Sequence record: PV654517
Direction: 5' to 3' (one strand)
From: Escherichia phage vB_ECOLIGBLB0003
DNA: 64,000 nucleotides
The position numbers were made by a program, and so were the translations under genes. Numbering within the stretch: the stretch's first letter is position 1; the number at the start of each line of letters is the position of its first letter. The notes under the pieces were generated by a model, which did no database searches, was not told where the DNA came from, and saw only the letters and a program-made list of their open reading frames with translations. Shown here one piece after another: positions 32,755 to 36,663 of the stretch.

Positions 32755-35700
32755 ATGGCTACTTTAAAACAAATACAATTTAAAAGAAGCAAAACTGCAG
32801 GTCAACGTCCTGCTGCTTCAGTATTAGCCGAAGGTGAATTGGCTATAAACTTAAAAGATAAAACAATTTTCACAAAAGATGACTCAGGTAGTGTTATAGA
32901 ATTAGGTTTAAAATATGGAGGAACAATTGATGGTTCTTTAACTGTTAATGGAAACATAATTGGAAATTTAACAGGTAACGCTGCAACTGCAACGAAATTA
33001 AAAACAGCACGAAAAATTAATGGTATATCCTTTGATGGGTCAAAGGACATTACCTTAACTCCATCTGACATAAATGTCAATAGCACAACGTTTATAAAAA
33101 ATAACGGCGAATTACCTGTTGATGCTAATTTAGATGAGTATGGGCCTGTTGAAGAATATCTTGGAGTTTGGTCGAAAGCAACTTCAACCAACGCTCAACC
33201 AGCAAATAAATTTCCAGAACAAAATGCTGTAGGTGTTCTAGAAGTATTTGTGGCCGGTCAATTTGCTGGTACTCAGAGATATACAACTAGATACGGAAAT
33301 GTTTATATTCGTTCCTTGACTGCTACATGGAACGGAGTAAACGGTCCGTGGAGTGCGTGGCGAAATATTCAATCTGGTACTCGTCCACTGTCAACAACGA
33401 TTGATCTTAATGATCTAGGAGGCGCTGAACACCTTGGTTTGTGGCGAAATAGTTCAAATTCCATTGCTACCTTTGACAGAAATTTCCCAGAAGAAGGATC
33501 GTCCGCTCAAGGACTTTTAGAAGTATATGAAGGTGGAAACTATTCTCGCACACAGAGATATACGACCAGATTTGGTGTTGTTTATACTCGTTGTCTTACT
33601 GCTGCGTGGGATGCTACTGCTCCTAAATGGGGACCGTGGCAACAAGTCGGTAATGTCACACCAGCGACTTTCTATGACGGAAACCTAAATGATTTTAAAA
33701 CTCCTGGGTTATATAATATTTTAGGCACTGATGCCGTTATTAACTGTCCTACCGGTGAAGGTTTGCCGACTGTTATTGTTGGTTTGCTGGAAGTTAAACA
33801 GCGCGCTTCTGGCGGTGCTATTTTCCAAAAATTTACTACTGCCGGAACGGGTTCAACTACTCGCGATCGTATTTTTGAGCGTGCATATACTGGTGGTGCG
33901 TGGGGTGCATGGAACGAAGTATATACATCTTACTCTCTTCCAATTACTTTGGGTATGGGTGGTATTAAAGCTCAATTAGCGGAGTTAGATTGGCAAACAT
34001 TTGATTTTGTTCCTGGTAGTATGTTTAGTGTTCCTTTGAACAAAATAAAGAATATGCCAGCAAATATGAATTGGGGCACGATTGACGGAAACCTGGTTAT
34101 GTTTTCCGTTGGTCCTAGCGAACACACTGGCACAGGACGTACTGTTCAGGTTTGGCGTGGAACTGTATCCCAGACAAACTATCGTTATTTTGTCGTTCGT
34201 GTATTCGGTAATCCGGGAAATAGAAGTATCAGAGTTCGTCGTGTTGTTCTTGAAGACGGATCACATACTTGGACTGCTAAACAAGATTTTAATGGCGCAG
34301 TTAACTTTAACTCTACTGTTAACCTTAATAACACTACCACATTTAAAACAGAAGTTAAATTCCGCTCGTTGAATGCATTCCGTATGTATGGCGGAAAATT
34401 TGGTACATTTTTACGTAATGATGGAGAGAGTCTTTATATTCTTTCCACCGACGAAGATGATCAAGATGGAAACTTTAATACAAATAGACCTTTCCGTTAT
34501 GAATTAAGAACTGGTGATGTTACTTTGGGTGGTGCTAGTGGTGCTAACGTTTTAAAATTAAAACGTGATTCTCTCACCGCATTTTTTGGCGGTGATATTA
34601 ACATTAAAGGCACGATGACTTTTGACGCCGGACGTTTAGGATCACGAGATTATTTTAAATTTAACCATTGGGGTGATAGCAATAACGCTCGTGATAACAT
34701 CATCCAGTTAGAAGATAGTCAAGGCGCCCATTTTTCCACTGAACGTACTTTAGCGACAGGTGCAATTAAAACTCGTTTCTTTGGCGAAACATTCACTGAT
34801 GGTACATTATACCTAAATCAGATGAATAATAGCTCTGAACGATTCTCTATCAACAATTGGGGAAATTCAGAAGTTGGTCGCGCGGCAGTATTGGAAGTCG
34901 GCGATTCAAAAGGTTATCACTTCTATGCTGAACGCAGGACAGATAACAGTTTGATGTTTGATGTTGCTGGTTCTTTGACCGTGCATGGACCTAGCGGAAT
35001 AACCATCAAAAACTCAACTGGTGCACGACATATCTGGTTTAGAGATGATAGCGATGCAGAAAAGGCTGTTATCTGGGCTACAGATGAGGGTATTTTACAT
35101 ATTCGCAATAATCATGGGGGTTCATTTAGTCATCACTTCCAGGGTGCAATGATTAAAGTGGGAGAGCGTGTTCCTTATGCCGGAGATCAAGGGCTTATTC
35201 GCGGTGAAGTTTCTGGTGGTGCTTATGTGAATTGGAGAGATCGCCCTGCTGGTTTGTTGCTTGACTGTCAACAAAGCGTTGATAGTGCTCATGCTATTTG
35301 GAAAGCGGTTGATTGGGGGCGTAACTTCATCGCTGCTCTGGACGTTCATTGTCCCGGTGATAGTAATAATACTGCGACAGCGATTCTTCATGTTCAGGCT
35401 GCTGATTATCAATTCCATGCAAATGGGAGCTTTGATGCCAGTGGCAACGGAAACTTTAACGATGTTTATATTCGATCAGACCGTCGCCTTAAAGACAATA
35501 TAGAAGATTATACCGGAAATGCGTTAAGTTTGATTGGTAAACTGAAAGTGAAAACTTACGATAAAGTTAAATCTCTTAAGGACCGTGAAATTATCGGTCA
35601 TGAGATCGGCATTATCGCACAGGATTTACAAGAAATATTACCAGAAGCGATTAATATTTCGAAAATTGGCAATCTTGATAAACCAGACGAAGTTCTGACA

Positions 35701-35829
35701 ATTTCTAACTCCGCTGTGAATGCTCTTTTAATTAAGGCCATTCAGGAAATGAGTGAAGAAATTAAAGAATTGAAAACGCCTTTCTTCACTAAAATTGCTC
35801 GCAAAATTGGTAAATACTTTAAATTCTAA
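32755..35829 (+). CDS. 37: long tail fibre distal subunit gp37 with C-terminal intramolecular chaperone (S74-type) domain
   Basis: 1024 aa; C-terminus [29 protein letters not shown] carries the SDxRLK self-cleavage motif. Confidence 0.92.
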
Positions 35830-35862
35830 TAACAAGGGGCATTGCCCCTTTGGAGATAAATT

Positions 35863-36663
35863 ATGGCAGTAGTTGGTGTTCCTGGTTGGATTGGTAGTTC
35901 ATCCGTAAATGAAACAGGACAACGATGGATGAGTCAAGCAGCTGGTCAATTAAGATTAGGTGTTCCTTGCTGGATGAGTCAATTTGCAGGTCGCTCAAGA
36001 GAAATAATTCACACGCTTGGAGCAGACCATAACTTCAATGGTCAATGGTTCCGAGATAGATGTTTTGAGGCAGGTAGTGCACCTATAGTGTTTAATATCA
36101 CTGGAAATTTGGTATCATATTCTAGAGATGTTCCTTTATTCTTCATGTATGGAGATACACCAAATGAATATGTTCAGTTGAATATTAGCGGTGGAGCTCA
36201 TATGTGGGGCAGAGGTGGACAAGGTGGATGGACTCATTCTGGTGGGGATGGTAATGGTCAACAGGGTGGGCATTGTATTCAAAATGACATTGGTGGTCGA
36301 TTAAGAATTAATAATGGTGGAGTAATTTGTGGCGGTGGCGGCGGTGGCGGCGGTATCGCTTATCGTCCTCACTCTGGTGCAAACTGGCAAGATATTGGTG
36401 GCGGTGGAGGAAGACCATTTGGCCCAGGAGGTGGCGGTGGTTATTCAGGAGGTGCTGCTTCTTATGATGGCCCAGGAGGCGGCTATAATTATGGTAATGC
36501 TCACTCTGGTCAGGGTGGCGACGCTGGCGGAAATGGACAAAATGCCTGGAATGATGGCGGTAAAGTACTAAAAGTCGGGGCTGGCGGGGCGGCAGGTTAT
36601 GCTGTAATAGGGTCTGCTCCAACATGGCAAAATGTTGGAGCAATATATGGTCCAAGAGTATAA
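35863..36663 (+). CDS. 38: T2-type receptor-binding adhesin gp38 (glycine-rich motifs)
   Basis: 266 aa with [22 protein letters not shown] and other Gly-rich blocks between variable segments. Confidence 0.9.
36331..36354 (+). repeat. GGY codon repeat (GGCGGT)n encoding poly-Gly in gene 38
   Basis: ggcggtggcggcggtggcggcggt. Confidence 0.7.

Follow-up and report, generated by a model that had tools for sequence, protein, structure and literature searches.

A probable receptor-recognition module of the T2/T6 adhesin type at the distal end of the long tail fibre of Escherichia phage vB_ECOLIGBLB0003, with OmpA as its likely receptor

Positions 32755-36663 of the window, by which we mean the whole 64,000-nucleotide stretch of DNA that was analysed (record PV654517), very probably encode the receptor-recognition module at the distal end of the long tail fibre of a Tequatrovirus, a module of the T2/T6 adhesin type. 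The gene order, the domains, the motifs, and the homology to solved structures and characterised adhesins were all computed here. The open reading frames of gp37 and gp38, both on the + strand, coincided exactly with the region that an earlier reading of the DNA, made from the sequence alone (the sequence-only reading), had assigned to them. The genes and signals of the locus are as follows.

32065..32072, + strand: TATAAATA, candidate late promoter just upstream of g36 (position and knowledge of T4)
32096..32746, + strand: gp36, distal connector joining gp37 to the hinge (open reading frame; Pfam Phage_T4_gp36)
32755..35829, + strand: gp37, precursor of the long tail fibre distal subunit, 1024 aa (open reading frame; PHROG 1699)
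35852..35855, + strand: ribosome-binding site GGAG, 7 nt before the gp38 ATG (direct sequence reading)
35863..36663, + strand: gp38, receptor-recognising adhesin, 266 aa (Pfam PF21721 and PF05268; PHROG 2056; PDB 9V85 and 6F45_D)
36694..37350, + strand: holin t, the 3' boundary of the module, given as context (Pfam Phage_holin_T, E 5.7e-116)

The open reading frames and Pfam matches indicated that the canonical T-even gene order of Tequatrovirus, g34-g35-g36-g37-g38-t, is present, with a gap of 33 nt between g37 and g38, and a g38 directly following a g37 that ends in an S74 domain was also found in RB32, SHFML-11, T2, T6, RB5, PP01, and AV119. The T4 late-promoter consensus, TATAAATA, at 32065..32072 occurs as a single copy between g35 and t and is likely where the late transcript of g36-g37-g38(-t) begins; this assignment rests on its position and on knowledge of T4 because its count in the whole window was not above chance, that is, no enrichment was observed. 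Scans for sigma-70 promoters and terminators also gave counts at or near chance, and the hairpin GGGGC-ATT-GCCCC (35836-35848) between g37 and g38 did not exceed shuffled sequence in stability (z -0.94). The closest genome overall was that of SHFML-26 (KX130862), with a backbone 97.7% identical over 24 kb and gp36 DNA 100% identical, and the exact sequences of gp37 and gp38 were both absent from a collection of 15 billion proteins.

The assignment of gp38 to the adhesins was based on matches to PF05268 GP38 (229.2 bits with a cut-off of 25, E 6.8e-68), PF21721 Gp38_N (70.6 bits with a cut-off of 25, E 1.1e-19), and PHROG 2056 (E 7.6e-113). Full-length homology was found to the solved adhesins of PP01 (PDB 9V85, E 1.3e-72) and S16 (6F45_D of the gp37-gp38 structure PDB 6F45, E 7.9e-50), which have the Gly-motif scaffold (PGII sandwich) and the Trp residues in common with gp38; the S16 and PP01 proteins bind OmpC, and their variable loops show no sequence relationship to those of gp38 (PP01 47% identity). 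Because this homology, with E values below 1e-49, extends to two crystal structures, the predicted fold of gp38, a PGII sandwich, can be regarded as settled. The parts of gp38 are listed below, where the boundaries of the Gly-rich motifs (GRM) and hypervariable segments (HVS) are approximate, having been set by conservation.

[quoted passage not shown]
36205..36594, + strand: specificity domain, aa 115-244 (alignments and conservation)
36205-36228, + strand: GRM1 (conservation)
36229-36264, + strand: HVS1 (conservation)
36265-36354, + strand: GRM2 (conservation)
36355-36396, + strand: HVS2 (conservation)
36397-36441, + strand: GRM3 (conservation)
36442-36507, + strand: HVS3 (conservation)
36508-36540, + strand: GRM4 (conservation)
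36541-36582, + strand: HVS4 (conservation)

The alignments indicated five Gly-rich motifs alternating with four hypervariable segments, with invariant Gly and Arg columns, variable blocks in between, and a conserved C-terminal PTWQNVG..YG.RV. The Gly content is 26.7% overall and 37.6% over aa 110-266, and variable stretches separate the Gly runs (G8 at 157-164, G5 at 179-183, G5 at 189-193, and G3 at 205-207), in agreement with the earlier description of a 266-residue protein with Gly-rich blocks between variable segments. In the N-terminal domain, W9, W22, and W37 were invariant in 9 sequences and aligned with the Trp residues of S16, and such N-terminal Trp residues act as 'prongs' of gp38 (PMC7917993). 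The first 46 residues were 100% identical to those of T6 and 63% identical to those of T2, and the overall identity was 49% to T2, 74% to T6, and 97.4% to RB32. The gp38s of T2 and T6, which are FadL and Tsx adhesins, have the same architecture and gene position, whereas their HVS sets differ (42-49% identity). These results support the membership of gp38 in the T2/T6-type adhesin family and place the module, by sequence, in the T6/RB32 subtype rather than that of T2, so that the label 'T2-type' given to it before was right as to the adhesin family and needs refining as to the subtype. The adhesin family is an experimentally established host-range determinant (PMC3157838, PMC12032242), which bears out the role earlier expected of gp38.

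An alignment of the variable segments with characterised adhesins, as had been proposed in the sequence-only reading, pointed to OmpA. Over aa 115-244, the identity was 97.7% to RB32 and 96.2% to AV119, in contrast to 42-49% to T6 (Tsx), SHFML-26, T2 (FadL), and PP01 (OmpC). RB32 is OmpA-dependent and LPS-sensitive (PMC3157838), and the gp38 of RB32/RB33 (Trojet et al. 2011) has the same four HVS and a T6-type N-terminal domain, with seven substitutions (S14A, S109G, A112V, N174K, G223A, N230H, and A260V). AV119 carries an OmpA 'type 1' adhesin, for which Lutz et al. (2025; PMC12032242) named the contact residues R165, V166, H167, S168, G169, A170, R181, D217, and R262. Eight of the nine are kept in gp38 at an offset of +3 (R168, H170, S171, G172, A173, R184, D220, and R265), and the ninth, V166, corresponds to P169, a substitution that is also present in the OmpA-dependent RB32. 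Because the loops of gp38 are almost the same as those of RB32 and AV119, OmpA is likely its receptor by homology. Binding may possibly be dependent in part on the LPS core, and the LPS dependence of RB32 could be indirect. Furthermore, Shigella sonnei was the host on which the nearest relatives were isolated, and hence a non-K-12 variant of OmpA may be what the phage targets in nature.

It is unlikely, on the same comparison, that this architecture serves a receptor other than OmpA (Tsx, OmpF, FadL, OmpC, OmpW, or an LPS structure) or only host-specific variants of OmpA, as the specificity domain is 96-98% identical to those of two independently characterised OmpA users and only 42-49% identical to the other classes, and close relatives share receptors in published gp38 phylogenies. 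Such a possibility is suggested by the finding that a point mutation in an HVS loop can be enough to alter the specificity, as for RB51 and for PST compared with T6 (PMC3157838), a single HVS substitution, Q206L, being able to switch RB51 from OmpF to OmpW (bioRxiv 10.64898/2026.04.02.716166). It would also be in line with reports of relatives with the same gp38 allele from Shigella, Salmonella, and Yersinia hosts, and with residue 230 in HVS4, which is N in gp38, H in RB32, and S in AV119; N230 is the only residue of aa 115-244 absent from both of these phages, and it was seen in SHFML-11 and PBM-1.

The Gly8 run that ends GRM2 had been read as a (GGCGGT)n repeat and, with the other Gly-codon repeats, had been proposed to be a hotspot of slippage or recombination.

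36331..36354, + strand: Gly8 run ending GRM2, GGCGGTGGC x2.7 (repeat scan and codon reading)

A Gly-codon repeat is indeed present there, reading GGC GGT GGC GGC GGT GGC GGC GGT and coding for Gly8, but the unit is a different one, with a perfect 9-nt period in 2.7 copies, which scored 48 in TRF (50 being the usual threshold), whereas a 6-nt period gave a match of only 80%. The perfect 9-nt repeat would be the starting point for the proposal that this tract and the other GGN runs yield host-range variants. Recombination at conserved gp38 motifs is an idea already in print, crossovers at such motifs being reported by Tetart 1998, as cited in PMC3157838. One engineered exchange, moreover, started at HVS2 (bioRxiv 10.64898/2026.04.02.716166). 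The hotspot proposal is nevertheless decidedly improbable. Slippage at Gly8 was rejected as unsupported because in RB32 an identical Gly8 is written in other codons, GGT/GGA, and the 9-nt repeat is missing; the gp38 DNA of RB32 shows about 9-12% synonymous divergence, including the Gly8 codons. The run comprises 5-10 Gly among 26 gp38s with the Gly-rich domain, and in seven aligned gp38s its length is conserved or varies by end substitutions, with no internal indel. Breakpoints inside the GRMs were also rejected, as a nucleotide comparison with SHFML-26, SHFML-11, PBM-1, and RB32 placed the junctions outside the Gly-rich block; for SHFML-26 and SHFML-11 they fell within 35809-36102, in the N-terminal half, and at about 36625-36640, in the region of the C-terminal PTWQNVG. 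Consistent with this, none of the 14 chimeras described by Trojet et al. 2011 (PMC3157838) had recombined anywhere from GRM1 to GRM5.

The same comparison delimited a block of identity to SHFML-11.

36103..36639, + strand: stretch of 537 nt with zero mismatches to SHFML-11 gp38 (nucleotide comparison)

The gp38 of SHFML-11 (KX130861 / NC_030953) is 99.6% identical, differing by one residue (A260I), and the C-terminal third of its gp37, the chaperone domain included, is identical, whereas its gp37 differs at aa ~50-330 (67-87% DNA identity) and is 6 aa longer. The gp37 of SHFML-26, in contrast, has the same length of 1024 aa and is 97.8% identical, and the SHFML-26 gp38, of 260 aa, has T6/RB5-like (Tsx-type) variable segments, with a specificity domain about 49% identical and about 46-64% identity per 100-nt window over 36196-36595. 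It may therefore be speculated, as a rather doubtful possibility, that the phage is a natural recombinant carrying an SHFML-11-type OmpA cassette, represented by the 537 nt of identical DNA, on an SHFML-26-like fibre that normally bears a T6/RB5-like (Tsx-type) gp38, and that N230 might alter which OmpA variants the phage recognises (e.g., towards Shigella/Salmonella OmpA) or add a second receptor.

The fibre protein on which gp38 would be mounted matched PHROG 1699, 'long tail fiber protein distal subunit', over aa 1-1018 (E 2.6e-232). Its features are given below.

33166..33714, + strand: tandemly duplicated domain of ~90 aa in the shaft, aa ~138-225 and ~232-320 (BLASTP between copies)
34312..34497, + strand: segment homologous to the C-terminal trimerisation domain of gp34, aa 520-581 (PF21446, E 1.5e-15)
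35461..35475, + strand: DVYIR, aa 903-907, predicted mature C-terminus and gp38 docking platform (motif; homology)
35476..35826, + strand: Peptidase_S74 intramolecular chaperone, aa 908-1024, 117 aa (Pfam PF13884; S16 and MYRF alignment)
35476-35493, + strand: SDRRLK, aa 908-913, in the context NDVYIR^SDRRLK (sequence motif)
35476-35478, + strand: Ser908, putative nucleophile (motif position)
35491-35493, + strand: Lys913, five residues after Ser908 (motif position)
35608-35622, + strand: trimerisation motif GIIAQ, aa 952-956 (motif position)

The two copies in the shaft are 39% identical (E 8e-19, BLASTP copy vs copy), and the DNA identity profile indicated that this duplicated stretch is the part of gp37 most divergent from SHFML-11 and RB32. 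The segment at aa 520-581 also matched the gp34 structures PDB 4UXE/5NXF. The gp37 of T2 is 1341 aa long, with an identity of about 20% for most of the shaft, and in RB32 the tip region is only 36-78% identical.

The evidence supports the view, suggested before from the SDRRLK motif, that the C-terminus of gp37 is an intramolecular chaperone of the S74 type. PF13884 matched aa 908-965 of 1024 with an E of 1.5e-14 and 54.4 bits (cut-off 22), the first position of the profile falling on residue 908 and the domain lying at the extreme C-terminus. The SDxRxK and G[VI]IAQ motifs were found in 8/8 T2-type gp37s examined, whereas T4 gp37 lacks both. Proteolytic processing of the T2 gp37 was reportedly described by Drexler et al. 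in 1986. The domain also aligned with the MYRF ICA domain (7DC3), and the cleavage-motif segment aligned with rdlnvsSDRRIK of S16 gp37 (6F45_A), which is cut at DLNVS^SDRRIKK with the release of 113 residues (PMC7917993). Endosialidase and MYRF both need the Ser-Lys dyad and G[VI]IAQ (PMC3742440), and the Ser-x4-Lys dyad, the G[VI]IAQ motif, the C-terminal position on a trimeric fibre, and the Pfam membership are common to gp37 and the K1F endosialidase chaperone / MEROPS S74 / MYRF ICA; the fibre upstream is unrelated in K1F endosialidase and MYRF, and in gp37 the release of the domain would create a docking site for a separate adhesin. An autocatalytic cleavage between R907 and S908 is therefore predicted by homology. 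The sequence left at the tip would be DVYIR, the same as that of the fPS phages (PMC7917993), and [DN]VY[IV]R is conserved at this site in T2, T6, RB32, RB5, PP01, and AV119; on the basis of the S16 structure, it is predicted to be the platform on which gp38 docks.

That the S74 domain instead stays on the mature fibre, with gp38 binding elsewhere, is conceivable in that the cleavage is predicted by homology, but it is very improbable, because gp37 keeps the dyad, with its spacing, and the trimerisation motif unbroken, and because the homologous S16 gp37 is cut at the aligned site and its gp38 docks on the exposed tip; the report on T2 gp37 mentioned above points the same way. Still less credible, and refuted at the sequence level, is the reading of gp38 as a T4-type assembly chaperone outside the virion with gp37 itself binding the receptor, against which the adhesin architecture had already been favoured: the two gp38s have in common no more than the name of their gene and its place behind g37, BLASTP against T4 gp38 gave an E of 0.84 with no meaningful alignment whereas the Pfam adhesin families were matched at E 7e-68, the receptor-binding gp37 of T4 has no S74 domain, and the last 220 residues of the gp37 encoded here were 0-4% identical to the needle tip of T4.

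For the adhesin module as preferred here, we infer the cleavage, the docking, the stoichiometry, and the receptor by homology. The 1024-residue gp37 would be made as a precursor, of which the last 117 residues form the Peptidase_S74 chaperone, and three chains would trimerise with the aid of this domain (GIIAQ). The Ser908/Lys913 dyad would then cut the R907-S908 bond, and the chaperone would depart, exposing a flat tip of three DVYIR strands, on which one gp38 monomer would dock via its N-terminal domain (Trp9, Trp22, and Trp37). The C-terminal domain of gp38 would fold from the Gly-rich motifs as a polyglycine-II sandwich, and the four HVS would protrude as distal loops and bind the extracellular loops of an outer-membrane protein.

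Taken together, the module was correctly read at first and is ordinary and already known; publications cover its architecture, the mechanism of cleavage, the PGII-sandwich fold, and the way in which the HVS relate to the receptor, and it adds no new biology. Its value is practical only, in that the primary receptor, OmpA, would be predictable from sequence, which is useful for cocktails of phages with different receptors or for host-range engineering by gp38 swap. It is also possible that the phage offers a clear case from nature of nearly identical fibres exchanging an adhesin cassette, with the junctions in conserved flanks.

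The window is from a Tequatrovirus (T-even phage): the 24 kb around gp37-gp38 had an identity of 97.7% to Shigella phage SHFML-26 and of 95-97% to many phages of the T2/T6/RB type. A six-frame ORF list recovered the canonical order g34-g35-g36-g37-g38-t, as follows, and the gp37 and gp38 coordinates of the sequence-only reading matched it exactly.

27040-30909, g34
30918-32033, g35
32096-32746, g36
32755-35829, g37 (1024 aa)
35863-36663, g38 (266 aa)
36694-37350, holin t

An exact T4 late-promoter consensus, TATAAATA, lies immediately 5' of g36 (32065-32072), and no copy was found ahead of g37, g38 or t; thus, g36-g37-g38-t is probably one late transcript. 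A second exact copy is present at 26998-27005, directly 5' of g34, and a terminator-like hairpin at 32037-32058, between g35 and the g36 promoter. The ribosome-binding site of gp38 is GGAG, 7 nt 5' of the ATG. The 33-nt g37-g38 spacer carries a small GGGGC-ATT-GCCCC hairpin (35836-35848), which varies among relatives and had no extra stability compared with shuffled sequence (z -0.94). In the hinge connector gp35, aa 58-125 matched Pfam ILEI (PF15711; interleukin-like EMT inducer; E 4.8e-8, above the gathering score), a surprising assignment for the hinge protein of a phage fibre.

Pfam assigned gp38 aa 1-42 to Gp38_N (E 1.1e-19) and aa 47-266 to GP38, 'phage tail fibre adhesin' (E 6.8e-68), and homology extended over the full length to the crystallised gp38 of PP01 (9V85, E 1.3e-72) and S16 (6F45_D, E 7.9e-50), which are described as lattices of polyglycine-II (PGII) helices from which receptor-recognition loops protrude (PMC12892980). 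The alternative of a T4-type chaperone was rejected, as the comparison with T4 gp38 gave an E of 0.84, that is, no similarity. The T2/T6 adhesin architecture proposed earlier was thereby borne out. In an alignment with gp38 of SHFML-11, RB32, AV119, SHFML-26, RB5, T6, T2 and PP01, Trp9, Trp22 and Trp37 were invariant; the corresponding Trp 'prongs' of S16 insert into the gp37 tip (PMC7917993). The Gly-rich motifs (GRMs) were also invariant, and four variable blocks, the hypervariable segments (HVSs), lay between them, with approximate boundaries:

gp38 ~aa 123-134, HVS1
gp38 ~aa 165-178, HVS2
gp38 ~aa 194-215, HVS3
gp38 ~aa 227-240, HVS4

Trojet et al. defined exactly this layout of GRMs and HVSs (PMC3157838). 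Proteins of 85-174 aa (translated from where the tblastn match begins) with the gp38 N-terminal motif GW[IV]GS..V.ETGQRWM and without Gly runs are encoded by IMG/VR loci L027-L044 (match at ~1501-1700 of each); in these, the docking domain presumably carries a different adhesin head. Such heads on the gp38 docking domain are described for RB43-like phages.

By sequence comparison, gp38 is assigned to the T6/RB32 and not the T2 subtype. Its overall identity was 99.6% to SHFML-11, 97.4% to RB32, RB33 and fFiEco06, 74-76% to T6 and RB5, 66% to PP01 and 49% to T2. The N-terminal attachment domain (aa 1-46) was 100% identical to T6 and 63% to T2, and the specificity domain (aa 115-244) was 97.7% identical to RB32, 96.2% to AV119, 49.3% to SHFML-26, 48.5% to T6, 47.4% to PP01 and 42.5% to T2. 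Aligning the variable segments with characterised adhesins, as the earlier reading had suggested, thus gave a near-match to two OmpA users. RB32 requires OmpA, with LPS composition also mattering, and its HVS block moved into RB5 carries RB32 receptor specificity with it (PMC3157838); AV119 is OmpA-dependent, with a 'type 1' OmpA adhesin (PMC12032242). Every residue of aa 115-244 but one occurs in RB32 or AV119; the one is N230 of HVS4, where RB32 has H and AV119 has S. The type-1 OmpA contacts are R165, V166, H167, S168, G169, A170, R181, D217 and R262 (Lutz et al., PMC12032242); eight of these nine are kept at a constant +3 (R168, H170-A173, R184, D220, R265), and V166 is replaced by P169, RB32 likewise having P. 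Because of this near-identity and the retained contacts, OmpA is likely to be the primary receptor. The estimate was kept below certainty since single HVS substitutions can switch the receptor, as Q206L in RB51 does from OmpF to OmpW (bioRxiv 10.64898/2026.04.02.716166), and since the prediction for this allele comes from sequence comparison.

The partner protein gp37 matched PHROG 1699, 'long tail fiber protein distal subunit' (aa 1-1018, E 2.6e-232), and Pfam identified a gp34-like trimerisation segment (aa 520-581) and Peptidase_S74, 'chaperone of endosialidase' (PF13884; aa 908-965, E 1.5e-14, 54.4 bits vs a cut-off of 22). Profile position 1 falls on Ser908, which is spaced from Lys913 as in the catalytic dyad (S-x4-K), and GIIAQ occupies aa 952-956; in endosialidase and MYRF, cutting at the serine depends on the Ser-Lys dyad, and trimerisation on the conserved G[VI]IAQ region (PMC3742440). 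When the last 201 residues were compared with the PDB by phmmer, the cleavage-motif stretch aligned with S16 gp37 rdlnvsSDRRIK (6F45_A, E 4.9e-7), and the MYRF intramolecular chaperone domain was matched as well. These results confirm the S74-type chaperone domain previously placed at the gp37 C-terminus. In Salmonella phage S16, the final 113 residues of gp37 are autocleaved at DLNVS^SDRRIKK, baring the gp38 docking surface, and an equivalent cut is predicted in Yersinia T4-like phages at DVYIR^SDGRLK (PMC7917993). SDxRxK and G[VI]IAQ were found in gp37 of eight phages (SHFML-26, SHFML-11, RB32, RB5, T6, T2, PP01 and AV119) and were absent from T4 gp37. From the aligned S16 site and these common motifs, a cut is predicted at R907^S908 (DNA 35475/35476), which would free 117 residues. 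Drexler et al. reportedly described proteolytic processing of T2 gp37 in 1986. In the gp37 shaft, a domain of ~90 aa occurs twice in tandem at aa ~138-320 (33166-33714; 39% identity between the copies, E 8e-19) and, more weakly, a third time at about aa 340-400. The aa ~138-320 stretch had a match to PHROG 4618, 'tail collar fiber protein', and within gp37 it diverges the most from SHFML-11 and RB32.

The mosaic structure of the module was analysed by an identity profile in 100-nt windows from g36 to t and a mismatch list. The match to SHFML-26 was near-perfect from 32096 to ~35808, with 23 of 1024 gp37 residues differing and none between aa 618 and 1018, and fell to merely 46-64% per 100-nt window over 36196-36595, because the 260-aa SHFML-26 gp38 has T6/RB5-like (Tsx-type) variable segments. 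To SHFML-11, gp38 had zero mismatches over 36103-36639 (537 nt), whereas SHFML-11 gp37 departs from that of the window at aa ~50-330. No database record spans all 3.9 kb above ~96% identity, and the exact gp37 and gp38 sequences were not in a 15-billion-protein collection. Therefore, the pairing of an SHFML-26-like gp37 with an SHFML-11-like gp38, lacking a single covering record, brings known pieces together in a new way. Both junctions lie in conserved parts of g38, the 5' one in the N-terminal half (35809-36102) and the 3' one in the C-terminal PTWQNVG region (~36625-36640); they flank the whole specificity cassette, as in 14 of 14 laboratory chimeras of Trojet et al. (PMC3157838). In AV119 gp38 (L046:8850-9641), nearly the same specificity domain as in the window (96.2%) is joined to an N-terminal domain of the PP01 kind (50%), and the gp37 of AV119 also ends as in PP01-like phages (DVYVR^SDIRVK). 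The case is one of natural shuffling, with the exchange at the attachment-domain/linker boundary and the gp37 tip co-varying. The public AV119 record (OR352949 120000-169342) names many consecutive, unrelated structural genes 'thioredoxin', evidently an annotation artefact of the GenBank entry.

The Gly-codon repeat at 36331-36354, the coding sequence of Gly157-164 where GRM2 ends, had been read as a (GGCGGT)n hexamer and a plausible slippage or recombination hotspot. The tract, GGC GGT GGC GGC GGT GGC GGC GGT, instead repeats perfectly every 9 nt (2.7 copies, TRF score 48) and fits a 6-nt period with just 80% consistency. RB32, with a 97% identical protein, encodes the same Gly8 by GGT GGA GGT GGA GGT GGA GGT GGT. 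The run comprised 5-10 Gly among 26 gp38 genes with the Gly-rich domain (GenBank references and IMG/VR loci L010-L026 and L035), and in seven aligned gp38s its length differences were substitutions at the run ends, with no gap inside. Since Gly8 is kept with other codons and internal gaps are absent, the constraint on run length acts on the protein, which is what PGII helices would lead one to expect, and the repeat in the DNA is a by-product of coding. These 26 compared and 7 aligned genes gave no sign of slippage, and no natural junction was found inside the tract among relatives compared at the nucleotide level; with RB32 codons differing and junctions lying outside, the hotspot idea is unsupported.

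Taken together, the gp37/gp38 architecture of the sequence-only reading stands, whereas its hexamer description and slippage idea do not. Every element is already known as textbook or recently published T-even biology: gp38 as an adhesin dates to Riede et al. 1987 (as cited in PMC3157838), GRM/HVS modularity and receptor mapping to Trojet 2011 (PMC3157838), the PGII-sandwich structure to Dunne 2018 (as cited in PMC12892980) and 9V85, and receptor prediction from gp38 phylogeny to Lutz 2025 (PMC12032242) and bioRxiv 10.64898/2026.04.02.716166. The sole contribution of this study is a confident prediction of OmpA as the receptor and a tidy natural case of adhesin-cassette exchange.
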